Shown: positions 33,663-59,856 of the stretch, one piece after another | Position numbering within the stretch: the stretch's first letter is position 1 | How the letters are laid out: the number at the start of each line of letters is the position of its first letter | Assembly (NCBI GenBank): GCA_018056375.1 | Contig: JAGPFQ010000002.1 | Coordinates: 11,344-75,343 of the forward strand | Source: Candidatus Dojkabacteria bacterium | Lineage (GTDB): Bacteria; Patescibacteriota; Dojkabacteria; SC72 | Direction of reading: 5' to 3' | DNA length: 64,000 nucleotides | Notes under the pieces: generated by a model | Told to the model about the DNA's origin: nothing | Databases searched by the model: none | What the model saw: the letters and a program-made list of their open reading frames with translations, nothing else | Translations under genes and position numbers: made by a program

Positions 33663-33706
<44 letters not shown>

Positions 33707-35982: not shown

Positions 35983-35988
35983 AACGGT

Positions 35989-36873: not shown

Positions 36874-36905
<32 letters not shown>

Positions 36906-36938
36906 ATTGGATAAGATCCCAAGGGTTGGACTGTTCGT

Positions 36939-36969
<31 letters not shown>

Positions 36970-44785: not shown

Positions 44786-45088
44786 GTGAATATTATGAAA
44801 AAAGAGAAAATCATGACTTTCGAAGAATTCGAAAAGAGGAATTTTACAGAAGAAGAATTAAAGATAATACATAAGAGGGCTCAGAAGAGGATTGCATTAA
44901 GGAAGTTAAGAGAGGCTAGGGAGAGTATGGGAATATCTCAGTACGAACTTTCTGTTAAGTCTGGTATTCCAAGGAGTGCAATTAGTGAGATTGAGAGTGG
45001 TAGGAGGAATGTGTCTGTTGCGAAGTTGAATAAGTTGGCAGATGCATTGAATACGGATTTGAAGATTGATTTTGTAAAGAGGAAATAA
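44786..45088 (+). CDS. XRE-family HTH transcriptional regulator with the HTH in the C-terminal half (HigA-like topology)
   Basis: The HTH_3 region is MGISQYELSVKSGIPRSAISEIESGRRNVSVAKLNKLADAL. The gene ends 6 nt from the stop of the convergent giant surface-protein gene. Confidence 0.7.
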   Translation: MNIMKKEKIMTFEEFEKRNFTEEELKIIHKRAQKRIALRKLREARESMGISQYELSVKSGIPRSAISEIESGRRNVSVAKLNKLADALNTDLKIDFVKRK

Positions 45089-45094
45089 CGAAGA

Positions 45095-48000
45095 TTATTT
45101 CTTTTCTACCTGTTTTCTCTTGTATATGTTATATCCTAAGAGTATTGTTAATAGGACAATTAGGGCAATCAACCAGTAAACGTATGTTGGTATTATTACT
45201 TTTTCTACTTTGACATTTATCTCCATCTCTTCTGCTCCATCGCTGATTAGATTAATTTTCTTTTCAGCCCTATACCCATTATATGAAATAACCATTGTAT
45301 GTAAACCTGTTTCTAGATTTTCAAAATATACTTCTCCATTTTCATCAGTAATTCCTGTTCTAACATCCGAGTGTATTTCAACAGTAACACCTACAAGAGG
45401 TTCTCCAGACTCATTGTATACCTTTATTTTTAGACTCTTAGATTGAGTAGGAGGAGTAGGTTCTTTAGTTATATCAACAGTTTCTTCTTCAGCTTTAGTG
45501 TCTTCTTCCTGTTCAGTTTCGATAATGGGATTGATGTATTTAGTAAAAGGATTCTTTGGTTTTACAATAGGTTTTGGGTCTAGAGGAGTAGGGATAATTG
45601 GTTTTGGAGGTTCTTCTTCCTCTTCCTCAGGTTGTTCTGGTTCTTCTTCCTCTTCTACAATATATGTCACAGAGTTATCAGTAGAGGTAGATGCTACGTT
45701 TGTATTTCCAGCTAAATCAGTTAATACATCAGCAGGAATAGTTGCCGTTACTGTTTCACCATTTGTTAGGTTCTCAATCTCAACTTCATACTCTGTTTCA
45801 CTAATTTTTGTTATACTTTTGACTTGAGCAGTAGTACTTCCTGAGATTAGTATGTCTTCATTAGTAAAAGTATCTTCTTTGATTGGTTTTGAGAAGATAA
45901 CCGTGTATTTAATGGAGTTAATATCTGTTGGGTCTGTTTGAGTAGAGGATTGATTAATAGTTACAGAGGGTGGAGTATTATCATATGTAATAGAGTTGTC
46001 AATACTGGTTGATGCAATATTTTTGTTTCCAGCAAGGTCTTCCACAGTATCAACAGGTAGGATGAGTGAAACTGTTTCTCCTGATACCATACCATTTACA
46101 TATGCTGTGTATGTTGTGTTATTGACATTTGTTAATAGTAATACTTTAGCTGTACTACTACCCAATATTTCTAAATCATCTCTTGTAAATGTATCTTCAT
46201 TTATTGGTTCAGAGAAGATTATTGTAAATTTAATTATATCTTCATTTGTAGGATCAGCTTGATCATCAGCTTGGTTTACTGTAACTGTTGGAGAAGTAGC
46301 ATCATATGTTACTGAATTGTCAGTAGAAGTTGAGGCAGTATTGGTGTTTCCAGCAGAATCTTCAACTCTGTTAGCCGGTAGGAAGAGTGATACAGTTTCC
46401 CCAGATACCATACCCGTTACAACTGCAGTATATGTAGTGCTATTTACTGTTTGTAATTGTGATATTGTCGCTGTACTACTACCTGATATGAGTAGGTCTT
46501 CTTTTACAAAAGTATCTCCATTTATTGGTTTGGAGAAGACAACTGTATATTTAATGGAGTTTATATTGGTAGGGTCTACTTGGTCATCAGCTTGATTTAC
46601 TGTAACAGTTGGTTTCTCTTTATCGAATGTAACAGTACTGGATTCTATCTCAGCAGTATTCCAGTTACCAAGAACATCTTGGTATGTATGAGCAGGGGAG
46701 AATACTGTTATACTTGCCTTTTGGTTCACTATGCCTGACACAGAGAGAGCATATTTCTTATTATTTATACTTGTTACTTCTGTAACCTTTGCTGTAGTAA
46801 CAACACCGTCTTCCTTAATCTTAAAACTATTTGCATCTAAGGTATCATCTTTCAGAGGTTCAGAGAAAGTTACATGGAAGATAATAGGTTGTTGATTAGT
46901 TGGATTTGGTTGTCCAGTAGCTGGTACAATTGAAGTAATGTATGGAGGTGTAATATCAATTATTAGTTGACCCGTGATTTCACTACTGTTTTGAGCAGTA
47001 TCCGTAGCAGTTATTGTTAAATTGTATGTTTTTGTTGTTAGGTTTGTAATGTCTCCAGCAGATACAGTCCAAGTACCATTTTGATTGTTTGTTGCATTGA
47101 TTATCTGTCCAGTTTCTACAATCACTACTTGTACAGTAGCATTTTTATCATTAACAGTACCTGTAAGTTCAGGGGAGGGGTTATTTGTACTTAAATCTTC
47201 ATATCCTACTACTGGAGCGATGGTGTCTTTCAATAGCTCTTTGGTGTCTTCTCCTTTGTTTCCAACATCGTCCGTCTGTGATGCATAGACAACGACAGTA
47301 CCATCGGGTTGTGCTGATAGGTCTAGTTCTGTGCTCCAAGTGTCATCACTTTGACATTCTGCTACATATGGTTGTTCTGCTATAACTGTAATGATATTGT
47401 TGTCTCCAAAAGTACATGTACCCCCTAGGGTGTAGTGGGTTCTGTTTGCTCTGTTAATTGGTGCTGTGCTGGTTATGGAAATTGCTGGTGGGATTCTGTC
47501 TATGATATATCCTTCTTTGGTTTCAGTAATACTGTTTCCTGCTTGGTCCTTGGCTGTTATAGCAAGGTTCCCTGATTCTATGATTGTTATTGTACAATTA
47601 ATAATATTTTTATCTCCAGTATCAGCAGTACATTCCAAATTCTCAGCCATTCCTGTTGAACTTGCAGCTATCTCAATATCTGCAGGATATATTTCAACAG
47701 CATCTGTTACAGTAATTGTAGTATCTGTAATATTATCCTTTTTCTTCTTGGTAGGAGCATTGATAGTAATAACAGGGTCAACAGTATCAATCGTATACAT
47801 GTGTGAGTTGTATCCAGTTGCTCCATTATTAGTATCCTCTGCTTGTATTATAATTGTTCCACTTTTATTAATATTTCTAATATTACAAGTTACGTATGTA
47901 GTATATGGAGCATTATGTTCTCCATCTGCATCTGCACAATTTTCAAGAGTAACACCCTCGGATGCTGTTCCAGAGATTGCAATGTTATCAATTTCGTGTC

Positions 48001-51000
48001 CTGCGATAGGGGCAGTAATTGTTACAGTTGAATTGTTAATGGGTTGGTTACTAAGGATAGTAGGGGCATTGAATACGACTTCTGGAGGGAAAATGGTTTG
48101 CTTTTCAGTAGTATTGCCCACTAAGTCGTAGGCGATAACTGTAATTGTGTGTTGATCTTCTCCTGCGTAAAGTTCAAGAGTTCTTTGTATAACACCAGGT
48201 TTTGTATACTCTATTTCATCAACTTTGTTTAATCCATCACTTCCAACATATTTAATCTCATACTTTAACATTCCTACAGCATCAGTAGCTTCAAATTCAA
48301 TAATTGGTTTATCTATACCATGTGTTAAAGTATCAATACTTGATGTAATAAAGGTTGGGGGAACTTGGTCAACAACATATCCATCTTTGAAGGCAGTAGA
48401 GCTTAACCCAGCATTATCAGTAGCCTTCAAAACTAATCTACCAGAAGTTTTTATACGAATAGTACAATTCATTTCTATATGATTCTCTGGATCGGGTGGA
48501 TCAGCTTCATATGGGAAGGGTGGAGTACATACAATATTATCCGCAGTAGCTATACTGGACTCATCTACTTCTACAGAAGCGATAGAGAAACGATCGCTTA
48601 CTTTAAATGTAGTATCAGTGATAGGGGCATTGGACATAGTAGTTCCTTGATTAATAGTAATTTCTGGAGGTAAATCATCAACATCAAGTACAGTGATAAC
48701 GAAGATTTCTTCGGTATATAAATTAGTTGAGTCGGTGGCTCTTACTCTAATTGTATATTTATTTTTATCATCAGGGTCAGCTGTTCCTGTTGGATTTTCA
48801 TAGTCTGGAGGTTCTAGGAAAGCTAAAGCACCAGTAGTAGGATTAAGAGCAAACTTAGAGTTATCTCCACTTCCTTCACCAGATACAAGAGAGTAGATTA
48901 CTGCACCCTCAGCTTCAGATGTAATAGTGCCTACTTCTGTTTTGTTTTCTTCGATTTCATCAGGAGATAGGCTGAGGTTCTGAGGAGGACATTTCTTACC
49001 AGCATCATTTATAGTCCATTTGCTCGGATCTCCCATTAAAGCTGTTCTTGCATCTTCTGCATAGCAGTAGTTTACTCCTACTGCATCAAAGGTTCGACTT
49101 GGTTTTACAGTTTGTACACTCCATGCATTTAGCAAACTATCATAATTATCTATTTGCATGTTAGAAGCATTTAAGAATTGATTAAAGTATTCAACCTTAC
49201 TAATATTCCAACTAGATATATCTTGATTAAATTGGGCAGCACGATCAAACATACGCGTCATATTTGTAACATTTGCTGTATTCCAACTATCACCAAACGG
49301 TTGATTAAACTGATAAGCATAATTAAACATAGCTGCCATACTTTTAACCTGAGTAGTATTCCAGTTTAAGGGCTTACTCTCATCACCAGGTTCTGCACCA
49401 TTATTAAAAACATTGGCATTTTGAAACATGAATGCCATATTTTCAACCTTTGCTGTATTCCAATCACCAATATATTGATTAAAACTTCTAGCTTGTCTAA
49501 ACATATCTGACATGTTCCTGACATTTGCTGTAGTCCATTTAGGGCCAAACGGTTGATTAAAGTCTCTTGCCACAAACATGGCATACATAGTATCAACCTT
49601 TGATGTATCCCAATTTAATGGATTACTACTACCACCTGCAACATCACCGTTATTAAAAACAGTAGCCCCATTAAACATATGCATCATACTGGTAACTTTT
49701 TTAGTATCCCAGTTATTAAGATTTTGGTTAAAGGAACTAGCACTCATGAACATGCCGAACGTACTAGTTATATTGCTAGTATTCCAAGAACCAATATTTT
49801 GGTTAAATGCTTTAGCGTTTAGAAACATGTATGTTACATACTGGAGACTTTTAGTGTCCCAATTCATGGTGTTGCTACTTTCACCTGGTGCTTCACCGTT
49901 ATTGAAAACGGTTGCACCTTGAAACATGTTAGACATATTAGTAACCACACCAGTATCCCAACCACCAATATATTGATTAAATGCACTAGCATCTCGAAAC
50001 ATAAGAGACATGCTTTCAACCTTTGTTGTAACCCAATTCATAGTATTTTGACTTTCACCTGGTGCATCACCATTATTAAAGGCTGTGGCTTGTCTAAACA
50101 TGTTAGACATATTAGTAACCGCACCAGTATTCCAACTACCGATGTTTTGATTGAAAACTGAGGCCTGATTAAACATTGAGCCCATATTAATAACCTCACT
50201 GGTATTCCACCCACCAATATCCTGATTGAATACAGTAGCTCCGGCAAACATACCGTACATATCTCTTACAAGTCCAGTCTGCCAACCACTAATATCTTGA
50301 TTAAAGGAATAAGCTTTGTTAAACATTTGCTTGAAGTTAAAGGCTTTACTCGTATTCCATTCTAAAGGCTTAGTGCTTTCACCTGGTGCCTCTCCATTAT
50401 TAAAATTGGTAGCTTCGAAGAACATAAGGGACATATTACCAACTTCGCCAGTTTTCCATTTACCGATGTATTGATTAAAATTTGTAGCACCACCAAACAT
50501 TGAGTTCATTGCAGTCACTGCACTTGTATCCCAATTACCTATGGGGGCATTAAAGTTACTGGCTCCACTAAATGTAGCAGCCATATTTTTAACACCACTA
50601 GTATTCCAACTATCCATAGAGTCATTACCAGTAAAGTTTGTAGCTCCTTGAAAAGCAGAAGACATATCTGTAACTTGTGATAAATCAGGGATATCAGTAG
50701 CAGTTAGTTGCATATTAACCATGTCCTTAAAGGCAGACATGAAGCTTGACCATGGGATAGTACCCCATTGTTTAATCTCTAATAGTTTAGCTTTTTCATC
50801 GGTAGCTAAATCAGGGGAATAGAAACGGAGTGGGGCAGTAGATCTAACGCAAACATCGTATGTACCTGGTGTCGGATAATTATGTGTAGCTAAGCTAGTG
50901 TAAAACAGTTCATAATCATCATCACAATTCCAAGATACTTCATAAGTATCGGTAGCTACTTTCAAAAATCTTAAAGTGACTTTATTTGGTTCAGTTGCTC

Positions 51001-51169
51001 CAGTTACATCAGTTTGCCATGTGGTTACAAATAGGTCAGGGGAGTAAGCATGGGTTTTAAAGTTTCTGTTTTTAACTAAAAAGATTGTAAAACCAATAAC
51101 TAATAGAAGGGTAGTTAGGATGAAGAATATTCTCTTTACATGTGGATATTGGACAGAATTTTTAATCAT
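45095..51169 (-). CDS. Giant cell-surface protein 1 (2024 aa). An N-terminal signal anchor is followed by about 19 DUF285-type repeats, a cadherin-like domain, Ig-like (Big) domains including 3 tandem copies, a Pro/Glu-rich linker, a CarboxypepD_reg-like beta-sandwich and a C-terminal TM anchor with a KR tail
   Basis: The ~27-aa unit F..A..FNQ(D/N)IG.WNTS.V..M..MF recurs throughout the N-terminal half. The cadherin-like signature is VITVLDVDDLPP. The C-terminus reads KPIVKPKNPF...IKVYNESGEPLVGVTVEIHSDVRTGITDENGEVYF...WLIALIVLLTILLGYNIYKRKQVEKK. Confidence 0.85.
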   Translation of the reverse strand: MIKNSVQYPHVKRIFFILTTLLLVIGFTIFLVKNRNFKTHAYSPDLFVTTWQTDVTGATEPNKVTLRFLKVATDTYEVSWNCDDDYELFYTSLATHNYPTPGTYDVCVRSTAPLRFYSPDLATDEKAKLLEIKQWGTIPWSSFMSAFKDMVNMQLTATDIPDLSQVTDMSSAFQGATNFTGNDSMDSWNTSGVKNMAATFSGASNFNAPIGNWDTSAVTAMNSMFGGATNFNQYIGKWKTGEVGNMSLMFFEATNFNNGEAPGESTKPLEWNTSKAFNFKQMFNKAYSFNQDISGWQTGLVRDMYGMFAGATVFNQDIGGWNTSEVINMGSMFNQASVFNQNIGSWNTGAVTNMSNMFRQATAFNNGDAPGESQNTMNWVTTKVESMSLMFRDASAFNQYIGGWDTGVVTNMSNMFQGATVFNNGEAPGESSNTMNWDTKSLQYVTYMFLNAKAFNQNIGSWNTSNITSTFGMFMSASSFNQNLNNWDTKKVTSMMHMFNGATVFNNGDVAGGSSNPLNWDTSKVDTMYAMFVARDFNQPFGPKWTTANVRNMSDMFRQARSFNQYIGDWNTAKVENMAFMFQNANVFNNGAEPGDESKPLNWNTTQVKSMAAMFNYAYQFNQPFGDSWNTANVTNMTRMFDRAAQFNQDISSWNISKVEYFNQFLNASNMQIDNYDSLLNAWSVQTVKPSRTFDAVGVNYCYAEDARTALMGDPSKWTINDAGKKCPPQNLSLSPDEIEENKTEVGTITSEAEGAVIYSLVSGEGSGDNSKFALNPTTGALAFLEPPDYENPTGTADPDDKNKYTIRVRATDSTNLYTEEIFVITVLDVDDLPPEITINQGTTMSNAPITDTTFKVSDRFSIASVEVDESSIATADNIVCTPPFPYEADPPDPENHIEMNCTIRIKTSGRLVLKATDNAGLSSTAFKDGYVVDQVPPTFITSSIDTLTHGIDKPIIEFEATDAVGMLKYEIKYVGSDGLNKVDEIEYTKPGVIQRTLELYAGEDQHTITVIAYDLVGNTTEKQTIFPPEVVFNAPTILSNQPINNSTVTITAPIAGHEIDNIAISGTASEGVTLENCADADGEHNAPYTTYVTCNIRNINKSGTIIIQAEDTNNGATGYNSHMYTIDTVDPVITINAPTKKKKDNITDTTITVTDAVEIYPADIEIAASSTGMAENLECTADTGDKNIINCTITIIESGNLAITAKDQAGNSITETKEGYIIDRIPPAISITSTAPINRANRTHYTLGGTCTFGDNNIITVIAEQPYVAECQSDDTWSTELDLSAQPDGTVVVYASQTDDVGNKGEDTKELLKDTIAPVVGYEDLSTNNPSPELTGTVNDKNATVQVVIVETGQIINATNNQNGTWTVSAGDITNLTTKTYNLTITATDTAQNSSEITGQLIIDITPPYITSIVPATGQPNPTNQQPIIFHVTFSEPLKDDTLDANSFKIKEDGVVTTAKVTEVTSINNKKYALSVSGIVNQKASITVFSPAHTYQDVLGNWNTAEIESSTVTFDKEKPTVTVNQADDQVDPTNINSIKYTVVFSKPINGDTFVKEDLLISGSSTATISQLQTVNSTTYTAVVTGMVSGETVSLFLPANRVEDSAGNTNTASTSTDNSVTYDATSPTVTVNQADDQADPTNEDIIKFTIIFSEPINEDTFTRDDLEILGSSTAKVLLLTNVNNTTYTAYVNGMVSGETVSLILPVDTVEDLAGNKNIASTSIDNSITYDNTPPSVTINQSSTQTDPTDINSIKYTVIFSKPIKEDTFTNEDILISGSTTAQVKSITKISETEYEVEIENLTNGETVTATIPADVLTDLAGNTNVASTSTDNSVTYIVEEEEEPEQPEEEEEEPPKPIIPTPLDPKPIVKPKNPFTKYINPIIETEQEEDTKAEEETVDITKEPTPPTQSKSLKIKVYNESGEPLVGVTVEIHSDVRTGITDENGEVYFENLETGLHTMVISYNGYRAEKKINLISDGAEEMEINVKVEKVIIPTYVYWLIALIVLLTILLGYNIYKRKQVEKK
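45650..46610. repeat. Three tandem repeats of about 320 bp inside giant gene 1 (approximate ends). Each encodes a ~106-aa Ig-like unit of the form PTVTVNQADDQ.DPTN...FSxPIxxDTF...GMVSGETVSL.LP...VED.AGN.N.ASTS.DNS.TYD
   Basis: The repeated protein units were read from the translation. Shadow ORFs 45996..46262 and 46317..46595 on the opposite strand mirror the ~321-bp periodicity. Confidence 0.6.
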
Positions 51170-51202
51170 AACCTCAATTTTGTAGCATACTCACTTTATC
51201 TA

Positions 51203-54200
51203 TCAGTTTTTATCTTCTTTGTTCTTCTTGTATATGATGTATCCAAAGAGTATTACTAATAGCACAATCAATACTATCCACCAGTAGTTTGTTCTTCTTA
51301 CTTCTTTTAACTCTACATTAACCTCAATCTCTTCTTCTACATTATTAGTTAAATCAATCTCTCTTTCATCTGTATGTCCTTTGTATGAAATGATCATTGT
51401 ATGTTGACCAATATCTACATTCTTAAAGTATGCTTCTCCATTCTTGTCTGTAATCTCTCTTCTAACCTTAGAATGTATTTCAACAGTAGCACCTTTGATA
51501 GGTTTCTTGTCTTTGTCATATACCTTTACTCTTAGATTCTTGTATAGAGAGGGGTAAGTAATCTTCTCTGTTGTCTTAGAGGTTTCCTCTTCAATTTTTT
51601 CTTCTGTTGTAGTCTCTTCTTCCTCCTTAATTATTGGATTAAGGAATTTATTATATGGATTTCTTGGTTTTACAATGGGTTTTGAAATAATTGGTTTGGG
51701 TGGCTCTGGTATTTCTGGTTTTTTCTCTTCTACGAAATACTTAACACTATTATCAGTAGATGTACTGGCCTTGTTACGGTTACTAGCTAGGTCTTCAACC
51801 ATATTAGCTGGTAAGGTAAGTGTTACTGTCTCTCCAGATACCATACCGGTTACAAGTGCTGTATATGTTGTATCATTAACCTTTGTTATTTTAGATACAA
51901 TAGCTGTACTACTTCCTGATATATCTAAAGTTGTTTTACAGAAAGTTTCTTCTTTAATTGGTTCTGAAAATACAACTGTAAATCTGATCTCATCTATATC
52001 AGTAGGGTCAGATTGTCCATCAGCCTGATTTACAGTAACTGTTGGAGCAGTAATATCATATGTAACTGAATTATCTGTACTGGTAGATGCAATATTCTCG
52101 TTTCCTGCTGGGTCTGTACATACCCCTGCGGGTATATCTACTGTGATGGTGTCTCCATCTGTTAAGTTACTTACTTCAAATTCATATTCGGTATCACTGC
52201 CATCAATCTTTGTAAGATTACCTTTTTGGTATGTTGTACTTCCAGTTACAACGATATCATCTGTTGTAAAGGTTGTATCAACAATTGGTTCTGAGAAGGC
52301 GATGATAAATTTGACTGGATTTAGATTGGTTGGATCTGTTTGTCCAATTGCTGAGTTAATGGTAACTGTTGGTGCTATGGTATCTTTCTGTAATGTTGCA
52401 TTTGCTGTTCCTATGTTTCCTACAGCATCTATCTGTTTAGCTTCTACTGCAATATCTCCATCAGGATAGGCAGAGAGGTCTGTGGTTAGTTCCCACACTT
52501 CTCCTTTCATACACATAGTCAAATGTGGTTGTGTTCCTATTGTAACAATTACATCTCCATCACTGGTTGAACATTCTCCTGATAGTGTGTAGCTCGATTG
52601 GTTATTTAAATTAACCTTTACAGGGTCATCATCTATTGTTACTGGTGGAGGTGTCTTATCTACCAGAAAACCATTTTCTTCCTTTTCAAAAGAGTTTCCT
52701 GCCTTATCAGTAGCTTCGATAACTAACTTACCAGAACCTGTGATTGTTAGAGAACAATGTACTATTGATTTGTCATTTTCATCTGTCTCGCAAGTGAAAT
52801 CCTTGTATCCTGCTGTTGTAGAATCTGTCTTTACTTTGACACCACTTGCAAAAAGGTCAACATTATCAGTAACTGTAATTTCGACATTAGTAATATCGTT
52901 GTTACTTTGCTTGATAGGTGGAGAGATGATTATGTCTGGAGCTTCTGTATCATGGAAATATTTTTGCACATTTGTTCCTGTTTGTGTCCATGATTCACCA
53001 TCTGTTTCTATAGCAGTTACTGTAAGCATACCGGTATTTTGAATACCTGTTATTCCACAGGTGAAAGTACCGGCATATGGTAAACTATCACATCCAGTAA
53101 GTGAGGCTCCAACCGCAGCAGGACCTGAAAGATCTATACTTGTAATTAGGTAAGCTGGGTCGGATGTAGTAATTGTTACAGTTGTATCATTGATGGGCGA
53201 TCCGTTACTAATTATATGAGGAGCATTTATTTCCACTACCGGTGGAAATGCAATTCTTCTAGATGTGGAGTTACTAGTTTCTAATGTCTCGCCAGCATTG
53301 TCATATGCCGTAATCTCTATTGTATGAGTTGGTTGACTAGAATCTAAGCTGAGGTCATATGATATGATGTCTGAACTGTATAGATCTTCTGGAATATCAA
53401 TGGTTGTTAAATTCCCCGGTACACCGTAAGTAATTTGATATTTCTGTATTCCCGTAGGGTCTTCTGCTTTAAACTTAACAGTTGGATTATGTATACTACC
53501 TGATGGAGGTATAACAACATTAGCTACTGTAAAGTTTGGACCTTTTGTATCTATGACATATCCGGGTTCTGCAGCTGTAGTAGTGTAACCAGCCTCATCA
53601 GTAGCATAGAGTACTAGAGTACCAGAAGTGGTAATAGTAACAGAACATCTAATAGTTAAGTGATTAGTAGGGTCAGGTTCGTCACATCTGTATGGAAAAT
53701 CAGGAGATGATGTATTTCTTATTCCCTGACATTGAATACTGCCAGATTCAATAGAGGCAACACTTGATGCATGTAATCCTACAGATTCAATTGAAAACCT
53801 ATCACTTACTTCAAATACAGTATCCGTTATATTCCCTTTCTTTGTTTTGGTTCCTGGGATAATTCTAATAACTGGTCCTACATCATCAATATCTTTAACT
53901 TTAATTATGAAAACTTCTTCTGAGTATAGTCCGATATCATCTGTTGCTCTTACTCTAATAGTGTAGAGATTTTTGTCAAGAGGATCATATGAGTCTTGTG
54001 GATCTTCAAAGTCTGGTTCTTCTAGAAATGATAGATGTCCACTATTCAAATCAAGTACAAACTTTGAGTTATCCATATCTCCTTCACCAGGGACAAGAGT
54101 GTAGGTGATGGGGGAATTTTCATCATCAATTGCTGAGATATTTCCTACATCCTTGGTGTGTTCATTAACTTCATCTTCGCCGTCGCCCAACCGTATTGTA

Positions 54201-55540
54201 TGTGGTGGACAGTTTTTACCAGCATCATCAATATCCCATCCAAAATCATTGGCTAATCTGTCTCTGTAAGGTTTGGCAGTACAGTAATGAAGTCCTTGTG
54301 CACCAAGTAGTACATTTGATTGAACAGATTGTGCACTCCATTTTCTTAGTAATTTCTCATAGTTGTCCATTGAGAAAGAGGTATTCTCTAAAAGATTTCT
54401 AAAAGTCTTTACATTACTGATATTCCAATCAGATATGTCCTGATTGAATTGAGTAGCACTCCAGAACATACTGTTCATATCCTTTACACTTACAGTATTA
54501 AAGTGACTTACATCTTGGTTAAATGCATATGCCATCTGGAACATAGCTAACATGGTGGTTACTTTTGATGTGTCCCAGTCGGTTAATGGCTGGTTAAAAC
54601 GATGAGCTCTGTCAAACATTCTTTCCATATTAGTAGCACTCAAAGTTCTCCAACTACCAATTGGTTGATTGAAAGAAGCATTAGATCTAAACATACCGTA
54701 AAAGTCTTCGACATTTTGTACATTCCAATTGAGAGGTGTACCACTAGCTCCAGCAGGGTCTCCGTTGTTAAATCTTGAAGCAAAGAACATATCTCTAACA
54801 GTAGTAACATTGCCTAGGTTCCAATTAGTAAGGTTTTGGTTAAAAGCAGAAGTTTGGAAGAACATCTCAGACATATCGGTTACATTATCTGTTTTCCAGT
54901 TTCCAATTGGACTATTAAATTTAGGTGAACTCTTAAACATACCTTTCATGTTTTGTACATTGATAGTGTTCCATCCATTCATATATTCATTTCCTGTGAA
55001 GTTTGTATTGTTTGCAAAAGCAAAAGACATGTCAGTTACTCTTGATAGGTCAGGTAGGTCAGTGGCTGTTAGTTTTAAGTTAGGCATACCTTGGAAGGCA
55101 TTTTTGAAACTTGACCATTTGATATTTCCCCATTGCTTAATCTCTAGAAGCTTAGCTCTCTCATCGCCAGTGAGGCTAGGTGCATAGAAGGCTATGGGAG
55201 CAAAACTTTTGATACAAATGTTATACGTACCAGGAGTTGTATAGTCATGAGTAATCTTACCATCTACATCTACTAGTTGATCCATATTACCATCACAATT
55301 CCAGTCAACTAGATAGTAACCTGTTGAACCTGTTATTTGAAAGTTTAAGGATACTGTTGAATCAGTTGCCTCTTTTATATTGGTTTGCCATTTGGTTACA
55401 AACAGTTCAGGAGCATAGGCTTGAGTTGTAAATACACCATTTTTAATTAGTAGGGTAGTAAAGAGAGTAACTAGGAGGAAGGTTCCTAGAAGGAAGAGGA
55501 TTCTCTTTGTAGTCTGATGTAGGACAGTTTTTGTATTCAT
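51203..55540 (-). CDS. Giant cell-surface protein 2 (1445 aa), a paralog of protein 1 with the same architecture, fewer DUF285 repeats and 2 tandem Ig-like units
   Basis: The N-terminus MNTKTVLHQTTKRILFLLGTFLLVTLF is a signal anchor. DUF285 repeats and cadherin-like VKDIDDVGP are present. The C-terminal module is about 80 percent identical in protein to that of gene 3, and the 3'-end DNA is nearly identical. Confidence 0.85.
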   Translation of the reverse strand: MNTKTVLHQTTKRILFLLGTFLLVTLFTTLLIKNGVFTTQAYAPELFVTKWQTNIKEATDSTVSLNFQITGSTGYYLVDWNCDGNMDQLVDVDGKITHDYTTPGTYNICIKSFAPIAFYAPSLTGDERAKLLEIKQWGNIKWSSFKNAFQGMPNLKLTATDLPDLSRVTDMSFAFANNTNFTGNEYMNGWNTINVQNMKGMFKSSPKFNSPIGNWKTDNVTDMSEMFFQTSAFNQNLTNWNLGNVTTVRDMFFASRFNNGDPAGASGTPLNWNVQNVEDFYGMFRSNASFNQPIGSWRTLSATNMERMFDRAHRFNQPLTDWDTSKVTTMLAMFQMAYAFNQDVSHFNTVSVKDMNSMFWSATQFNQDISDWNISNVKTFRNLLENTSFSMDNYEKLLRKWSAQSVQSNVLLGAQGLHYCTAKPYRDRLANDFGWDIDDAGKNCPPHTIRLGDGEDEVNEHTKDVGNISAIDDENSPITYTLVPGEGDMDNSKFVLDLNSGHLSFLEEPDFEDPQDSYDPLDKNLYTIRVRATDDIGLYSEEVFIIKVKDIDDVGPVIRIIPGTKTKKGNITDTVFEVSDRFSIESVGLHASSVASIESGSIQCQGIRNTSSPDFPYRCDEPDPTNHLTIRCSVTITTSGTLVLYATDEAGYTTTAAEPGYVIDTKGPNFTVANVVIPPSGSIHNPTVKFKAEDPTGIQKYQITYGVPGNLTTIDIPEDLYSSDIISYDLSLDSSQPTHTIEITAYDNAGETLETSNSTSRRIAFPPVVEINAPHIISNGSPINDTTVTITTSDPAYLITSIDLSGPAAVGASLTGCDSLPYAGTFTCGITGIQNTGMLTVTAIETDGESWTQTGTNVQKYFHDTEAPDIIISPPIKQSNNDITNVEITVTDNVDLFASGVKVKTDSTTAGYKDFTCETDENDKSIVHCSLTITGSGKLVIEATDKAGNSFEKEENGFLVDKTPPPVTIDDDPVKVNLNNQSSYTLSGECSTSDGDVIVTIGTQPHLTMCMKGEVWELTTDLSAYPDGDIAVEAKQIDAVGNIGTANATLQKDTIAPTVTINSAIGQTDPTNLNPVKFIIAFSEPIVDTTFTTDDIVVTGSTTYQKGNLTKIDGSDTEYEFEVSNLTDGDTITVDIPAGVCTDPAGNENIASTSTDNSVTYDITAPTVTVNQADGQSDPTDIDEIRFTVVFSEPIKEETFCKTTLDISGSSTAIVSKITKVNDTTYTALVTGMVSGETVTLTLPANMVEDLASNRNKASTSTDNSVKYFVEEKKPEIPEPPKPIISKPIVKPRNPYNKFLNPIIKEEEETTTEEKIEEETSKTTEKITYPSLYKNLRVKVYDKDKKPIKGATVEIHSKVRREITDKNGEAYFKNVDIGQHTMIISYKGHTDEREIDLTNNVEEEIEVNVELKEVRRTNYWWIVLIVLLVILFGYIIYKKNKEDKN

Positions 55541-55575
55541 TTTTAGAAATTAATATATGTTAATTTTAATTATCT

Positions 55576-58491
55576 TTATTTATCTTCTTTCTTTTTGAAT
55601 ATGGCATACCCAATGAGTATTACTAGTATGACAACTATTCCAATTAACCAATAGTTTGGTTTACTTTCTTTTTCTAACTGTACATTAATCTCTATCTCTT
55701 CTCCTTCTTCACTGTCATTAGTTAAATCAATTGTTCTTTCATCCTTCTGTCCTTTGTAGGAGATTATCATGGTGTGTTTACCAACCTCTACATTCTCAAA
55801 GTATGCTTCTCCATTTGCATCTGTAATCTCTGTTCTAATCTTAGAATGTATTTCAACTTTTGCTCCTTTGATAGGTTTCTTGTCTTTGTCATATACCTTT
55901 ACCCTTAGGTCTTTGTAAAGAGTAGGGGTGGTTGATTTATCAATTATTTCAGATGTTTCACTCTTATCTTCTTCTTTCTCTTCTGTAGCATCTGTGGTTT
56001 CTGTCTGTTCCACGACAGGGTTAAGGTATTGAGCTATTAGATTTTTTGGTTTTGTAACAGGCTTTGGATCTGATGGTGTGGGAATGACTGGTTGTGTAGG
56101 TGGAGTAAGAGGTTTTTCTGGTGGAGTGTCTGGTGGTGTTACAGGAGGTGTTGTCTCATCTACATCTAATACATAGATATCAATTGTTTGTGTACTACTT
56201 AAAGATTCAAATCTTGGATTATCAGTTGCTGTAACCTCTACCACATATTTATTTGGAACATCTCCAGCCTGTGTTGGGTTCTCATAGTCTGGGGCAGAAA
56301 CAAAGTATAGTTTGCCCGTTGCTGGTTCAATGGTAAATTTACTTGCATCAGCACCACCTGTTATTGAGTAGGTATGTGTTTGTTTTGGTAATTGAGTATC
56401 TGTAGCAACTATCTGTCCTACATATGCCTCATTCTCATCTACAACAAATTCAGAATGTGTGGTGAATAGTGGAGCGGTGTTGTTTTCTTTACCAATCTCA
56501 AACATAACTTTGGTATCGAAAACTTCTCCAATACTTGTTGTGTAAACATCACTAAAATCAAAATACATTTTGTTGTACTGTGGTGCAGTAGAGGTGAAGT
56601 ATCTTGAATTGCTATTCCATCCCTCCAACACTGTCACATCAGAGAAGAACCCTGTGTCTTTTCCATAGACTACAGCTCTTCCTCCCATCTGATCTCCAAC
56701 ATAGTTTGTTTGAGAATGTGTACCTGCAACATTTTCTTTTACATAGAGAGGAGCTACCATTGAAGTGTCTGTAATCTGCCCTATAGAGTCGGTTCTGTTA
56801 ATTGGTACCATGAATAAATATGAATCTACTAAGTTTTCTACGGTTAACCAAGTTGTTTTCTGTGTTAAGTAGTTGTCTCTGTCAAAATGGAAAGTCCAAT
56901 GTTTTTCTGAAGTAGCAACATTTTCTCCTACATTTGAAAGTCCTTCAGGAGCGAATAGGTTGGAGTCTTGATAGATATCTAATTGTTTTGTTTTTCTAAA
57001 TCCAAACTCTGTGTAGTCAATTTCATGTCCATCTAGTTCGATAGAGAAATCTGTTAATAGTTCATCCCCGTGTGCAGCAGAACCCATAAAGTCTGAAGCA
57101 CCAGATATCCTTATGGCTGTCTCCCAGTTTCCTGATGTTACAATAGTTCTTTTTGTAGCAAAGTTTTCATCAGTTAGATATGTGCGTCCAAGTAACCATG
57201 AGTCTGCATTTGTAGAATCATTTACAATTCTGAAGAAATTGTAAGCTATATACTCAGTTCCATATGGTTTGTAGATTGTAATATCCTTGTCTTGAATGTT
57301 AAGCAACATATAGGAGCTATCTATTTGATTCTTGTATACCTTTGAGGTTGTACAGTTTACACAGTCCAGATCGTTGTTAATATCTGTGCTATATAAAGTA
57401 CCATTTGCCCAGGTATGAATGTTTACATTCTTTACAGAGGCATTAACGAAGGATGCTCCATATGTATTACCAATATTCCTTATGGAAATAGTTTCTATTA
57501 AAGCTGTACTTCCTTGTAGTACATCGTTGATATATAGCTCTACATTTGTTCCATTGATTAAAACCTTATACCTATTATATACAGCCTGATTAACAGGTGT
57601 TGAGGGGGTAAAGCTCATCCATGTTGAACTACTACCACGAATTGCAAATGTAGAAGAATTGTTCCAACCCATTGTCTGATTGCCACCTCCAGTTACTCCG
57701 AACAGACCAAGAGTTCCTTGATATGCAGAATCCATATCATTCCATTTTGCTTCAAACTCTATGTAGTCTCCATCATCTTGTAAGATATATGTTTTATCTA
57801 AAGTTGCATATGCATTGACCCCATTAAATTCAGTTGCTGTTTCTCCACTATCTACACCTAATTCTACTTGTACAATTCTATTTGTAGTTGCTGTATTACC
57901 TCCAGAATCTGTTGCAGTATATGTAATGTGATATCTTCCTGTTCTGTTTGTATCAACTGTTCCTGTTGCTGTGGCAGATAAATTATCATCTACATCATCA
58001 ACAACTGTTGCACCAGGGTCTACAAACTGTTCTCCTAATGGGATATTCATAAATGGATCTCCATTTAGTGTAATAACAGGGGGTTCATCAACAAAGGTTG
58101 TTGTACAGTTATGACAAGTTAGGTCATTGAAAATATTGGAGCTACTTAGAGTACCTAAAGCATCTGTGTGTATAGTGAAGTCTTTAACAGATGCATTTAC
58201 AAACCTAGTACTATATGCATTTGCTATATGTGATACATGAATAGGTTGAGCAAATGCTTTTGTTCCTCTTGTTACATCATCTATGAAGAGTTCAACACTT
58301 GCACCTGAGTTTGTAATTAACACCTTATACTTATGTAGCTCGGCTTGGTTTACACCATTTACAGTGTAGAAAAGCCAGTTACTACCATTATCACGCACAC
58401 CAAAGCTTGTGGCACTATGCCAACCTACAGTGTTTGGGAGAGTTCCACCAACTCCAAAGAGACCTAATGTTCCATTGTATGCAGAGCCCAT
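55576..58491 (-). CDS. Giant cell-surface protein 3 (at least 971 aa). It has two tandem lectin-like (LamG/ConA-like) modules, a large beta-rich domain, a cadherin-like domain and the shared C-terminal linker/CarboxypepD_reg/TM module. The annotated ATG is internal: the in-frame upstream region (to 58701) encodes the missing first module, and the signal-peptide start (ATG at 58709-58707) is out of frame by one base at an A6 tract
   Basis: Upstream in-frame codons read KITPILLAVIAIFTFYSVFETTTTSSIKKEALAGYTITEFNGVNAYAELGDTHILKDEGDYLEFTAKWNDM. These align with the second copy SGETATEFNGVNAYATLDKTYILQDDGDYIEFEAKWNDMDSAYQGTLGLFGV. ATG CTT AAA AAA TAA reads MLKK then stop, and one extra A in the tract would give MLKKITPILLAVIAIF.... 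Confidence 0.8.
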   Translation of the reverse strand: MGSAYNGTLGLFGVGGTLPNTVGWHSATSFGVRDNGSNWLFYTVNGVNQAELHKYKVLITNSGASVELFIDDVTRGTKAFAQPIHVSHIANAYSTRFVNASVKDFTIHTDALGTLSSSNIFNDLTCHNCTTTFVDEPPVITLNGDPFMNIPLGEQFVDPGATVVDDVDDNLSATATGTVDTNRTGRYHITYTATDSGGNTATTNRIVQVELGVDSGETATEFNGVNAYATLDKTYILQDDGDYIEFEAKWNDMDSAYQGTLGLFGVTGGGNQTMGWNNSSTFAIRGSSSTWMSFTPSTPVNQAVYNRYKVLINGTNVELYINDVLQGSTALIETISIRNIGNTYGASFVNASVKNVNIHTWANGTLYSTDINNDLDCVNCTTSKVYKNQIDSSYMLLNIQDKDITIYKPYGTEYIAYNFFRIVNDSTNADSWLLGRTYLTDENFATKRTIVTSGNWETAIRISGASDFMGSAAHGDELLTDFSIELDGHEIDYTEFGFRKTKQLDIYQDSNLFAPEGLSNVGENVATSEKHWTFHFDRDNYLTQKTTWLTVENLVDSYLFMVPINRTDSIGQITDTSMVAPLYVKENVAGTHSQTNYVGDQMGGRAVVYGKDTGFFSDVTVLEGWNSNSRYFTSTAPQYNKMYFDFSDVYTTSIGEVFDTKVMFEIGKENNTAPLFTTHSEFVVDENEAYVGQIVATDTQLPKQTHTYSITGGADASKFTIEPATGKLYFVSAPDYENPTQAGDVPNKYVVEVTATDNPRFESLSSTQTIDIYVLDVDETTPPVTPPDTPPEKPLTPPTQPVIPTPSDPKPVTKPKNLIAQYLNPVVEQTETTDATEEKEEDKSETSEIIDKSTTPTLYKDLRVKVYDKDKKPIKGAKVEIHSKIRTEITDANGEAYFENVEVGKHTMIISYKGQKDERTIDLTNDSEEGEEIEINVQLEKESKPNYWLIGIVVILVILIGYAIFKKKEDK

Positions 58492-58697
58492 ATCATTCCA
58501 TTTAGCTGTAAATTCTAAATAATCACCCTCGTCCTTTAGGATGTGTGTATCTCCTAATTCTGCATATGCATTTACACCATTAAATTCTGTTATGGTGTAT
58601 CCTGCTAGAGCCTCCTTTTTAATTGAGGAGGTGGTTGTTGTTTCAAAAACAGAATAGAAAGTAAATATTGCTATTACAGCAAGTAAAATAGGTGTTA

Positions 58698-58703
58698 TTT
58701 TTT
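58698..58703 (-). repeat. A6 homopolymer (T6 on the plus strand) at the junction between the signal-peptide start codon and the body of giant gene 3. It is a candidate slipped-strand phase-variation site or a homopolymer sequencing error
   Basis: Counted directly on the reverse complement: gttATGcttaaaaaataacacctatt. A6 leaves the ATG out of frame. A7 would fuse MLKK to ITPILLAVIAIFTFYSVF.... Confidence 0.6.
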
Positions 58704-58908
58704 AAGCATAACAGAGCAGTTAAAATTTATCTCTTATACATATTATATTGTAATGAAAATAGTATATTAGTCAAGCTTTTTATGATTGCTAGTTTGAATC
58801 CTTTCCTGTTATTCGGCCTAATTTAAGGAGTTGATTCCTCATTTTAGGCATAATTTATGTAGTTAGAGAAGGTTTGAATCTTTCAGGATTCTGTTCTATT
58901 ATAAACAA

Positions 58909-59856
58909 ATGTTAAAAGTAGAAACAAATAAAAATGTTATATTTCTTACACTCTTAATCAATTTTCTTTACCCTAAGGAAAAAGAACAATTTTATTTATA
59001 TACCAAGATTAAAGAGAAATTTGCCCAACTTATACCACAATCTTTCATAACTAATTTTAAGCATACATATGGCAAAGACAACCAACTATCAATTCTCTAT
59101 AAATACATTTGTTTATCAATATATTTAGACAGTAATTTTGATTTTGACTTCAAAGATGGTGAAGTCTATTCAGATAAATTTTCTAAAGATGTATCTTTTT
59201 TTAAAACACACCTAAAGAAATTGTATAGGAGTATAGATTTTGATTCTTTTTACAGCACAAATATAGAAAAGGAGTATAAGGAGTTATGTAAAAATATAGA
59301 AGAAATTTTTAACAGGAAACCAAATATATTAGATATTCTTTCTAATTATTGGGAATTAAACTATACTCCAGAATTTGTTTTCATTCCAAACTTTGTGGCT
59401 TTAGGAGATTGTTTTGGCTTGAACAGAGGAAGAAAGTTTTTTTCTGTAACATCTCCTAAGGTAAATAAGGTGACTGGTAAATCTGAGTACTATCCTGTTC
59501 ATGTATATTCTAATACTATCCATGAATTATCACATTCGTTTTTTGATGAAAAGATACATGTAAAATATTCTAAAAAGGAATTGATGGACAAGGTGGAGAA
59601 GTTGGGGTTGAATGAGGAGGTTTTGAGAGTGTATGGTTCGGCATATTTTGAAGAATGTTTTGTTCGAGCTGTTACTATGCGATTGAATGAAATTGTAAAT
59701 ATATATGATTTAGATGATAAAGGATTGAAAGAGAAAGTAAAGAACTATCTTTTGAGTAATGATAATTTAGGGTATCCATTGGTTAGGTTTTACTATGAAA
59801 AACTGATGAATAGGGAAGGTGAATCTTTGCAAGCGATTTTTGAATCTGTCTTGTAG
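58909..59856 (+). CDS. Hypothetical protein with an HExxH motif (TIHELSHSF), a putative zinc-dependent metallopeptidase-like protein
   Basis: A single HExxH motif sits in the C-terminal third and the N-terminus is hydrophobic. No family could be assigned. Confidence 0.4.
   Translation: MLKVETNKNVIFLTLLINFLYPKEKEQFYLYTKIKEKFAQLIPQSFITNFKHTYGKDNQLSILYKYICLSIYLDSNFDFDFKDGEVYSDKFSKDVSFFKTHLKKLYRSIDFDSFYSTNIEKEYKELCKNIEEIFNRKPNILDILSNYWELNYTPEFVFIPNFVALGDCFGLNRGRKFFSVTSPKVNKVTGKSEYYPVHVYSNTIHELSHSFFDEKIHVKYSKKELMDKVEKLGLNEEVLRVYGSAYFEECFVRAVTMRLNEIVNIYDLDDKGLKEKVKNYLLSNDNLGYPLVRFYYEKLMNREGESLQAIFESVL

Follow-up and report, generated by a model that had tools for sequence, protein, structure and literature searches.

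Modular, probably surface-exposed proteins encoded by three adjacent genes with a shared C-terminal module in a Candidatus Dojkabacteria bacterium

Three adjacent, co-oriented minus-strand genes (g1, g2 and g3), separated by gaps of 33 and 35 bp, form a 13.6 kb array in a 64,000-nucleotide stretch of Candidatus Dojkabacteria DNA (the window). The account favoured here, which is reasonably likely when taken as a whole, is that they constitute a family, probably an operon, of modular proteins predicted to be exported to the cell surface and to bind there; that the family diversifies by changes in repeat number and by inter-paralog recombination, through which heads come to sit on other stalks and anchors; and that g3 lies behind a hypermutable A6/A7 tract in the lineage of the window, with an expression mode that would follow from this position. 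In kind the locus is ordinary, comprising modular adhesin-like proteins that are well documented here. The bacterium, a member of the CPR, is tiny and uncultured. The open reading frames of 2024 aa (45095–51169), 1445 aa (51203–55540) and 971 aa (55576–58491), all on the minus strand, agree with the three consecutive giant genes described in an earlier sequence-only reading. The genes and the promoter candidate are as follows:

45095..51169, minus strand: g1, 2024 aa; signal or anchor segment, PKD-like N-domain, about 20 PARCEL/DUF285 repeats, cadherin-like domain, long Ig-like stalk, linker, CarboxypepD_reg, transmembrane (TM) helix and K/R tail
51203..55540, minus strand: g2, 1445 aa; plan as in g1, with about 10 PARCEL repeats and a shorter stalk
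55576..58709, minus strand: g3, which would have 1044 aa with an A7 run; the actual sequence gives MLKK-stop and then 1040 codons left open in the −1 phase
58747..58774, minus strand: candidate sigma-70-like promoter (TTGACT-16-TACAAT) ahead of g3, with conservation in L007, L008 and L038

Inspection of the short g3–g2 and g2–g1 gaps (33–35 bp) revealed no signal comparable to the promoter candidate before g3, so a single g3-g2-g1 transcript is likely and the genes probably form an operon. Synteny of the array extends to at least five related lineages, among which gene number and repeat number differ, and its conserved order is ClpB-S1-(variable)-g3-g2-g1-(variable TA)-HhH-GPD-Tmk (L007, L008, L009, L010/11, L001-6 and L038). 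All three genes are under purifying selection, with dN/dS values relative to L007 of 0.17 (g1), 0.26 (g2) and 0.19 (g3).

The three proteins have in common a C-terminal module of about 175 aa, in which a Pro/Glu/Thr linker leads into a CarboxypepD_reg beta-sandwich, a single TM helix and finally a Lys-rich tail, and which is found in exactly three copies in the window (tblastn):

45098..45664, minus strand: g1 module; Pro/Glu linker with KPIVKPKNPF.KYINPIIE motif, CarboxypepD_reg at aa 1913–1984, TM at aa ~1990–2016, KRKQVEKK tail
51206..51736, minus strand: g2 module; linker, CarboxypepD_reg at aa 1336–1411, TM at aa 1416–1440, KKNKEDKN tail
55579..56166, minus strand: g3 module; linker, CarboxypepD_reg, TM, KKKEDK tail

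The shared ending noticed in the earlier reading is far beyond chance on alignment: the modules are pairwise 48–60% identical over 176–188 aa (BLASTP, E 4e-49 to 3e-59), with 47 invariant columns that include the TM segment. The CarboxypepD_reg assignment is likewise borne out, with 37–45 bits in the three genes against a Pfam gathering cut-off of 32.3. By hydropathy, each protein has a single hydrophobic stretch per end, and a K/R tail is found at every C-terminus. Pfam, hydropathy and alignment together uphold the proposed plan of an N-terminal signal, a large ectodomain and a conserved beta-sandwich, TM helix and basic tail, the topology being a prediction. Among cluster representatives, the module was matched by 1711 at E ≤ 1e-3 and by 457 at E ≤ 1e-10, and the beta-sandwich, TM helix and basic tail formed the extreme C-terminus in 117 of the best 150; the module marks a much wider family of anchored proteins. 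The usual order in those other proteins is fn3-(LysM)-CarboxypepD_reg-TM, and the mutually unrelated heads above the anchor include FG-GAP, beta-helix, a SASA esterase and a weak GH130-like match. On these sequence comparisons, the anchor cassette is a general device common to hundreds of other large surface proteins.

The heads and stalks of g1 and g2 contain the following features:

51065..51145, minus strand: g1 N-terminal hydrophobic signal segment, aa 9–35, from hydropathy
49175..50752, minus strand: g1 PARCEL/DUF285 block, aa ~140–665, with a 25-aa period and 33-aa variants
48656..48955, minus strand: g1 cadherin-like domain, aa 739–838; 39.6% identical to the g3 cadherin domain (BLASTP, E 2e-11)
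45665..48652, minus strand: g1 Ig-like stalk; Big_13, Big_12, Big_3_3-like
54371..55123, minus strand: g2 PARCEL/DUF285 block, aa ~140–390; PF03382 209 bits

The signal segment of g1 is followed by a conserved ...THA|YSPDLFVT sequence, kept in orthologs, which is a possible signal peptidase I site. The g1 repeats match PF03382 with 451 bits in 6 stretches and TIGR02167 with 98 bits in 8 stretches, and form DNA repeat family D1. Both blocks are above the DUF285 gathering score, as had been proposed, but their period is 25 aa with 33-aa variants instead of about 27 aa. In NCBIfam the DUF285 repeat is named the PARCEL repeat. A beta-helix, also proposed, did not find support in the low-confidence structure model of the repeats (pLDDT 60.3), which had no fold match in the PDB. 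The claim of a cadherin-like domain in all three proteins holds above the Pfam cut-off for g3 (45.6 bits), but elsewhere depends on homology to the g3 domain: in g1 the Pfam Cadherin score is 24.6 bits, under the cut-off of 28.8, and in g2 there is a BLASTP match (E 3e-7) and no Pfam match. Big_13 and Big_12 are above the gathering score in g1, whose stalk also holds three to four tandem units of about 107 aa at 45827–46682. No catalytic domain was detected in g1, g2 or g3 with Pfam and NCBIfam.

The head of g3 is of a different composition:

57319..58614, minus strand: g3 head; two paralogous all-beta modules of ~180 aa, 53% identical, candidate ConA/LamG-like lectin folds
57865–58074, minus strand: DUF5011/Bact_surface_Ig-like domain between the two head modules; PF16403 71 bits, above gathering score
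56464..57306, minus strand: beta-rich domain of ~280 aa; model pLDDT below 50
56167..56448, minus strand: cadherin domain; PF00028 45.6 bits, Protocadherin-8 match in the PDB

The two lectin-like modules of the earlier reading are thus present as paralogous all-beta units, but their LamG character is weakly supported: Laminin_G_3 reaches 20.1 bits (cut-off 27.6) and does so in the second copy only, and the Foldseek matches, all to tandem LamG/galectin pairs, were obtained with a model of pLDDT 40.6. The beta-rich domain had no Pfam match at E ≤ 1 and no PDB match, and the search gave one distant homolog beyond close relatives, P0157 (524 aa, without the anchor module). Ortholog lengths range from 2024 to 2432 aa for g1 and from 1436 to 1585 aa for g2. 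In P0233, a natural chimera, aa 73–883 of g3 are fused to aa 964–1445 of g2, placing a g3 head on a g2 stalk and anchor. Head content varies between genes and genomes, and with this chimera the notion of a conserved anchor with swappable heads is supported.

Each protein would be exported via its N-terminal Sec-type signal and retained by the single C-terminal TM helix, with the Lys/Arg tail in the cytoplasm. The prealbumin-like CarboxypepD_reg beta-sandwich would rest on the membrane, while the Pro/Glu/Thr-rich linker and the Ig-like/cadherin-like stalk would push the N-terminal head outward through the wall. Binding would fall to a solenoid of PARCEL/DUF285 repeats in the case of g1 and g2, and to two lectin-like jelly rolls and the beta domain in g3; the likely task of the heads is attaching to or recognising another cell or its glycans. 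PARCEL/DUF285 repeats go with membrane-targeted surface proteins (PMC2996958), and in Saccharibacteria, extracellular lectin-like and fn3 proteins are needed for epibiotic growth (PMC10633639). Judged from domain content and CPR biology, the role would be host attachment.

The start of g3 contains two features:

58698..58703, minus strand: A6 homopolymer, g3 codons 3–5
58636..58698, minus strand: hydrophobic core of the g3 signal peptide (ITPILLAVIAIFTFYSVF), read in the −1 frame with respect to ATG 58709

The end coordinate given earlier for the array, 58709, is that of the g3 ATG, from which MLKK-stop is read; the A6 run is followed by the long ORF in the −1 frame. Having A6 here in place of A7 puts the signal peptide out of frame, so that the signal anchor ascribed to each protein exists as a hydrophobic stretch at every N-terminus, but in g3 is not in frame with the start. 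In the orthologs of L007, L008, L038-40 and L059 the tract is A7 and the signal peptide, MLKKITPILL..., is intact. Besides the window, 13 further independent assemblies from different projects have A6, a tally that is biased because these loci were retrieved through proteins starting at an internal ATG. Homopolymer tracts in the 5′ coding region are typical of contingency (phase-variable) loci, and −1 slippage is known on A-rich heptamers such as A AAA AAG in dnaX. With contingency-type switching, full-length g3 would need the tract to return to A7; alternatively, if tRNA-Lys slipped by −1 on A AAA AAA, ahead of the TAA stop, exactly the A7 product would result. The presence of A6 in every sampled assembly of the window clade speaks against rapid ON/OFF switching, and no stimulatory RNA structure was found after the tract (z = −1.72). 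The N-terminal signal of these proteins may be an uncleaved anchor, and in g3 the nearest AXA motif is far from the hydrophobic core.

A doubtful alternative is that g3 is just a pseudogene in this lineage, its signal peptide having been removed by the A7-to-A6 deletion, and that the array is eroding, with only g1 and g2 functional. The MLKK-stop product, the NCBI annotation of a 971-aa protein without a signal and the uniform A6 of the window clade are consistent with it, as are inactivating lesions in relatives (g2 is frameshifted in L001-6 and L067, g3 has a nonsense codon in L008, and a g2-like gene is split in L011), so that plain decay may account for some copies. However, the 1040-codon frame is open in all 14 A6 assemblies, and g3 pN/pS is 0.09–0.25 in all pairs, those inside the all-A6 clade included, a low range that could come partly from recombination with intact alleles. 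The ratio is 0.11 (23 synonymous, 8 non-synonymous) even in the 103 codons from the frameshift to the first in-frame ATG, which an internal start would leave untranslated. Among four close g3 lineages (window, L041, L007 and L008), the A-tract is the only frame-breaking indel, all others being multiples of 3, and L008 (A7) nests among A6 sequences on the tree, so the tract has changed at least twice.

It is unlikely that the proteins are envelope components other than host adhesins, forming an S-layer-like coat or aggregation/biofilm fibrils, or capturing polysaccharide or particulate substrates. The enzyme-like heads borne by the same anchor cassette in other organisms, the generic binding and spacer character of Ig, cadherin, lectin and repeat domains, and a lineage without a known host would fit such a role; against it are the lack of a catalytic domain in the three proteins, the diversity of heads between strains on a conserved stalk and anchor, which is typical of recognition proteins, and the Saccharibacteria precedent (PMC10633639). 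Cleavage of the C-terminal motif, TM and basic cluster by a dedicated sortase-, exosortase- or rhombosortase-like enzyme, in place of permanent anchoring, is very unlikely. The three-part layout is similar to known sorting signals, conservation within the family is unusually high in the TM region ((P/T)NY(VY)W...L..GY.IYKK), and LSP(L/Q).Y recurs just ahead of the TM in many distant members. Yet NCBIfam C-terminal sorting-domain models gave no match at E ≤ 1, LPXTG is absent from g1–g3, neither the window nor the neighbourhood of the array in relatives yielded a candidate processing enzyme, and Pro and aromatic residues at a TM boundary are ordinary interface features. Scarcely credible, and largely refuted by synteny, is the earlier idea of a dedicated apparatus in which a flanking HTH regulator and a metalloprotease-like HExxH protein act with the giant proteins. 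Both genes adjoin the array in the window, and the HExxH ORF is 98% identical in L007. The HTH gene, however, is an orphan HigA-like antitoxin that converges on the 3′ end of g1 and is not upstream of the array; its Gp49/HigB-HTH pair is intact in L001-6, reduced to the HTH in the window and absent in L007. The HExxH ORF has no signal sequence, family or PDB match, and the array lacks it as a neighbour in L008, L011 and L038, with other genes in its place in L038.

As modular surface proteins, g1–g3 resemble several known systems. With Gram-positive MSCRAMM-type/LPXTG adhesins they share the logic of an N-terminal signal, distal head, repetitive Ig-like stalk, Pro-rich wall-spanning segment and C-terminal hydrophobic segment with a basic tail. 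Unlike these, they have no LPXTG or other recognised sorting motif, carry a folded CarboxypepD_reg directly ahead of the TM helix, and are presumably retained by that helix itself. The PARCEL/DUF285 proteins of Mollicutes, Listeria and diverse microbes (Roske et al., 2010, PMC2996958) have the same 25-residue repeat, with high family-HMM scores here, copy numbers that vary between orthologs, an association with membrane-targeting sequences and a reduced, host-dependent type of organism. In contrast, the repeats here head proteins of 1.4–2.4 thousand aa with cadherin-like and Ig-like stalks, no mobile-element association was seen, and the anchor is a C-terminal TM helix, whereas mycoplasma members are lipoproteins (the NCBIfam Mbov_0838 lipoprotein model reached 302 bits against a cut-off of 500). 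The g3 tract is similar to those of contingency loci in lying among the first five codons of a gene for a surface protein, in a length that differs by one base between close strains and has changed more than once, and in a gene body maintained by selection; it differs in being short (6–7 nt) and in having the OFF length throughout the sampled members of one clade. Giant1-5 of Apilactobacillus kunkeei (PMC12863079) differ in domain families, anchor, phylum and size (3–8 thousand aa, against 1.0–2.4 here). They are nevertheless alike in being consecutive, co-oriented giant surface-protein genes that occupy a notable share of a small genome (here 13.6 kb, related contigs of 0.72–0.76 Mb possibly being near-complete genomes), in placing an N-terminal repeat or solenoid head on a long stalk, and in diversifying by intragenic and inter-paralog recombination.

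The locus consists of three giant putative surface-protein genes, g1, g2 and g3, whose co-oriented ORFs fill the minus strand between 45095 and 58709, where the sequence-only reading had placed them. The array and its flanks are laid out as follows.

44786–45088, plus strand: HTH_3 gene converging on g1, an orphan HigA-like antitoxin
45095–51169, minus strand: g1, 2024 aa
51203–55540, minus strand: g2, 1445 aa
55576–58491, minus strand: g3, 971 aa from the first in-frame ATG, with the frame open back to 58698
58774–58747, upstream of g3: promoter candidate TTGACT-16-TACAAT, conserved in relatives
58909–59856, plus strand: 315-aa HELSH ORF, 98% identical in the related locus L007

Given the promoter candidate upstream of g3 and the lack of a convincing promoter in the intergenic gaps of 33 and 35 bp, a single g3-g2-g1 transcript seems likely. 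Ahead of this promoter, the divergent intergenic region contains an imperfect direct repeat of 32 nt (1.9 copies, 58803–58864), and the sequence around the repeat is kept in L007.

In relatives, the array is found at the same chromosomal site, between ClpB-S1 and HhH-GPD-Tmk, with the following composition.

Array genes at related loci
L007: 1036, 1436 and 2071 aa
L038: 1034, 1585 and 2324 aa
L001-6: g1 ortholog of 2432 aa
L010/L011: split g2-like gene and two g1-like genes of 2120 and 1946 aa
L009: 1064-aa protein with a different head and 1524-aa g2-like protein

The related contigs of 0.72–0.76 Mb may be near-complete genomes, in which case the 13.6-kb array would account for ~2% of the genome. 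Relative to L007, dN/dS is 0.17 for g1, 0.26 for g2 and 0.19 for g3, with locally higher values within the g2 stalk and lower ones for most of the repeat and Ig units. The NCBI entry for g3 of the window is MBP8979530.1; exact look-ups found no entry for g2 or for that g3 protein. Elsewhere in the window, the 23S rRNA gene is 4.2 kb long (33062–37284), with a group I intron at 36002–36230 and a LAGLIDADG endonuclease ORF at 35387–35884, an rRNA operon structure that fits a CPR genome. A 437-aa protein with a Cas_csx3 domain is encoded at 40468–41781, near a DEAD/DEAH helicase (37567–39537) that has a weak Cas3-like C-terminal match.

The genes at either side of the array vary among relatives. 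The Gp49/HigB toxin partner of the HTH gene is present in L001-6 and deleted in the window, while the whole pair is missing in L007. At the other end, the HELSH ORF lacks a signal and matches nothing in Pfam, NCBIfam or the PDB; in L038 its place is taken by an AbiEii TA module together with an AAA ATPase and a polysaccharide deacetylase, and it is absent beside the array in L008 and L011. With such differing cargo, both array edges look like variable insertion spots. The proposal of a dedicated system with a flanking regulator and a metalloprotease-like gene is not sustained, since the former is an orphan antitoxin and the latter is replaced in L038 and absent in L008 and L011.

All three proteins share their C-terminal end. 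The last 176–188 residues of g1, g2 and g3 are 48–60% identical (BLASTP, E 4e-49 to 3e-59), exactly three copies of this module are present in the 64-kb window (tblastn), and an alignment of g1-g3 with three metagenomic fragments contains 47 invariant columns. The module begins with a Pro/Glu/Thr-rich linker bearing a conserved KP(I/V)(V/T)KP(K/R)NP..(K/Q)(Y/F)(I/L)NP(I/V)(I/V)E motif, followed by a CarboxypepD_reg domain (PF13620; 44.7, 37.4 and 41.7 bits vs. a gathering cut-off of 32.3) that stops ~30–40 residues short of each C-terminus, and then by a single hydrophobic helix and a Lys-rich tail. The common anchoring module read from the sequence is thus confirmed by BLASTP, tblastn and PF13620 scores above cut-off. 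The DNA of the three copies is only 67–78% identical, which indicates old paralogs and not recent duplicates, and by the same figure recent homogenisation of the paralogs was ruled out. The KPIVKPKNPF.KYINPIIE motif is located within otherwise low-complexity linkers in all three genes (45522–45576, 51630–51684 and 56012–56066), at the position where distant relatives of the anchor cassette have a LysM domain; speculatively, this position hints at contact with the wall. Kyte-Doolittle hydropathy gives one hydrophobic stretch at either end of the proteins, and the last 6–9 residues are K/R-rich. They are predicted to be type I (N-out, C-in) membrane-anchored surface proteins, the signal of g3 being out of frame. 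LPXTG is absent from g1, g2 and g3, NCBIfam sorting-domain models gave no match at E≤1, and there is no sortase-like gene among the neighbour genes scanned in the window and its relatives.

In an anchor-alignment scan of one genome per species, Candidatus Dojkabacteria MAGs alone contained the full module. From 1.84 billion cluster representatives, a module profile retrieved 1711 matches at E≤1e-3, 457 of them at E≤1e-10, and the expectation that the module defines a wider family is supported by these 457. Among the best 150 matches, with sizes up to 2021 aa, the beta-sandwich, TM helix and basic tail lie at the extreme C-terminus in 117. Nine proteins were scanned for their heads, which are unrelated and include FG-GAP, right-handed beta-helix and SASA esterase domains, a weak GH130-like match and a sub-threshold disaggregatase-repeat match; their usual ending is fn3-(LysM)-CarboxypepD_reg-TM. 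Hundreds of large proteins from uncultured organisms have this ending, with a basic tail, under unrelated heads, and many of the homologs P0022–P0153 carry an LSP(L/Q).Y motif directly ahead of the helix. A broad anchor alignment profile gave only 2 matches in a word-indexed database. No description of the cassette was found in the literature on DUF285, PF13620, CPR adhesins or Dojkabacteria. The module could serve as a sequence probe for surface-exposed proteins in hundreds of uncultured lineages.

The N-terminal heads differ between the genes. In g1 and g2, a hydrophobic signal segment is followed by a conserved (T)(H/Q)A↓Y(S/A)P(D/E)LFVT sequence, a plausible signal peptidase I site, and by a weak PKD-like domain. 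The repeats were correctly recognised as DUF285 (PF03382: 451 bits in g1 and 209 in g2 vs. a cut-off of 25; TIGR02167: 98 and 33 bits vs. 30), although their period is 25 aa and not ~27 aa, with 33-aa variants that contain an NNG.APG.S insert. There are ~20 PARCEL repeats in g1 and ~10 in g2, while g3 has no PARCEL/DUF285 repeats. PARCEL coding DNA is characteristically dyad-symmetric, its antisense strand encoding a similar repeat; here there are antisense ORFs over the repeat block, which match no Pfam family, and with no family matched, antisense ORFs across the array genes were treated as incidental. A PDB sequence search with the DUF285 block returned no match, and the AlphaFold2 model of the N-terminal/PARCEL region of g2 (pLDDT 60.3) has no PDB match at E<0.8; the repeats may fold as the beta-helix that had been suggested or in an LRR-like manner. 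An Mbov_0838-type surface lipoprotein was ruled out, as NF045896 scores 302 and 146 bits, below its cut-off of 500, and no lipobox is seen by eye, there being no Cys after the hydrophobic core in the N-termini of g1 and g2. An RTX-type Ca2+-stabilised adhesin (NF033510) was likewise rejected (41.4 and 22.7 bits vs. a cut-off of 50). The repeats are followed by a cadherin-like domain and an Ig-like stalk (Big_13, Big_12 and Big_3_3-like), with tandem ~107-aa units in g1 at 45827–46682.

The head of g3 comprises two paralogous all-beta modules of ~180 aa, 53% identical, at either side of a DUF5011/Bact_surface_Ig-like domain (71 bits). Laminin_G_3 matches the second copy at 20.1 bits, below its cut-off of 27.6, and the first copy not at all. 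An AlphaFold2 model of this head, built on a 5-sequence alignment, is of low confidence (pLDDT 40.6) and unusable for the 280-aa middle domain. The Foldseek matches to this low-confidence model are all tandem LamG, galectin, ConA-like or BoNT-Hc pairs (E 1e-5 to 1e-3), which, together with the sub-threshold Laminin_G_3 match, lends soft support to LamG/ConA-like lectin folds. The ~280-aa domain after the second module has no Pfam match and no PDB match. A cadherin domain had been assigned to all three proteins; it holds for g3, where it follows the ~280-aa domain, by PF00028 (45.6 bits vs. 28.8, plus a PDB protocadherin match), but not by Pfam for g1 (24.6 bits, below cut-off) or g2 (no match), though their domains are related to that of g3 by BLASTP.

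A natural chimera, P0233 (1285 aa, three assemblies, L069–71), joins residues 73–883 of g3 (98% identity) to residues 964–1445 of g2 (94%). In the window, this corresponds to 56053–58482 (g3, in repaired numbering) fused to 51206–52651 (g2), and the chimera has lost the g3 anchor and the g2 head. In P0233, recombination or deletion between paralogs has placed the g3 head on the g2 stalk and anchor. It directly supports a conserved anchor with exchangeable heads, the organisation that had been put forward. Other inactivating lesions are also present in array genes of relatives, and some of these lesions may be assembly errors. Frameshifts in g2 outside homopolymers occur in L001 (~530–545) and L067 (~5670), g3 of L008 has a TGG-to-TGA nonsense codon (~7690) and L011 has a split g2-like gene (8938–9137).

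The start of g3 contains an A-tract (58698–58703) of varying length. From ATG 58709 the sequence reads ATG CTT AAA AAA TAA, encoding MLKK-stop, and the long frame runs on from ATA 58698. One extra A in L007, L008 and L038-40/L059 (A7) gives MLKKITPILLAVIAIFTFYS..., a normal signal peptide, and the A7 product ahead of the internal start reads ITPILL...EALAGYTITEFNGVNAYAELGDTHILK. The six-A allele (A6) is present in the window, in L041 and in twelve further contigs, among them L062-72, from other runs and projects, 14 assemblies in all, a tally biased by the fact that the contigs were reached through proteins starting at the internal ATG. Two metagenome pattern scans for the tract context returned 0 and then 1 true locus, a yield too small to correct this bias in the A6 and A7 counts. 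An assembly error as the source of A6 was rejected, the same allele being present in 14 assemblies from different projects, as was an alternative genetic code, since the stop is TAA and a single additional A is all that sets the intact orthologs apart. Neighbour-joining places L008 (A7) within the A6 sequences, which implies at least two changes of the tract; every other indel among four close g3 lineages (window, L041, L007 and L008) is a multiple of three. At least 850 codons are open in 14/14 A6 alleles. In all pairs, also within the all-A6 clade of the window, pN/pS is 0.09–0.25, and over the 103 codons from the frameshift to the first in-frame ATG it is 0.11 (23 synonymous and 8 non-synonymous). 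The open frame and low pN/pS are unlike a long-dead pseudogene.

Three readings of this site are considered. By its sequence, g3 would qualify as a contingency locus, in that the tract is coding, varies in length between close relatives and toggles the frame; the A6 alleles could then reflect contingency-type switching in which the OFF length predominates. Alternatively, A6 itself may yield the full-length protein if tRNA-Lys slips to -1 on A AAA AAA before TAA, or through transcriptional slippage. Either slip would give exactly the A7 protein, and tRNA-Lys is able to re-pair at -1 on CTT AAA AAA TAA, where the 0-frame stop follows directly; against this, the RNA downstream of the tract forms no significant stimulatory structure (z = -1.72). 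The recurrence of tract changes and the low pN/pS could also be reconciled with a mutational hot spot at which losses are recent and recurrent, the signal of selection then stemming from intact ancestors or from import by recombination.

With respect to function, the proteins would be exported by Sec through the N-terminal signal, with the C-terminal helix acting as stop-transfer and the K/R tail remaining inside. The beta-sandwich would serve as a pedestal close to the membrane, the wall would be spanned by the acidic Pro-rich linker together with the Ig/cadherin stalk, and the N-terminal heads would be exposed for binding. A putative role in attachment to a host cell, or in its recognition, would be in keeping with the reduced, host-dependent biology of CPR bacteria and with the Tn-seq result in Saccharibacteria, whose epibiotic growth requires extracellular lectin-like and fn3 proteins (PMC10633639). 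A more far-reaching proposal, which as a whole is rather unlikely, is that g3 is a functional host-recognition protein whose output is set by the hypermutable A6/A7 tract at codons 3–5, as a reversible contingency switch or by constitutive tRNA-Lys -1 slippage, and that fn3-(LysM)-CarboxypepD_reg-TM is a lineage-wide anchoring or sorting device that marks the exposed proteome. To our knowledge, no recoding or phase-variation control of a CPR surface protein has been described before, and if true, A6/A7 control of g3 would be the first.

The prevailing view is that CPR bacteria live attached to other microbes, and we know of no contact molecules described outside Saccharibacteria. The locus offers three candidate contact proteins, conserved within a Dojkabacteria clade and encoded at the same genomic site, whose heads vary while the anchor stays constant; in architecture, modularity and wider anchor family the sequence-only reading stands overall. 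From the A6/A7 site it may be possible to learn how a surface protein is tuned or switched in such an organism. Even if none of these ideas holds, the array illustrates cleanly how modular adhesins evolve, with a head swap caught in the act.

In kind, the array belongs to a familiar class, that of modular adhesin-like proteins, and two features merit further attention, the A6/A7 site, which is still under selection, and the anchor cassette, which is widespread and as yet unnamed. The repeat heads of g1 and g2 belong to the PARCEL/DUF285 family (Roske et al., 2010; PMC2996958), but differ from the mycoplasma lipoprotein type, scoring below the NF045896 cut-off. The overall logic is that of Gram-positive modular adhesins, except that a TM helix takes the place of the LPXTG signal, and the genomic layout is similar to that of the giant-protein genes arrayed in Apilactobacillus kunkeei (PMC12863079). 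The g3 A-tract resembles those of contingency loci, yet it is short and apparently fixed within one clade.
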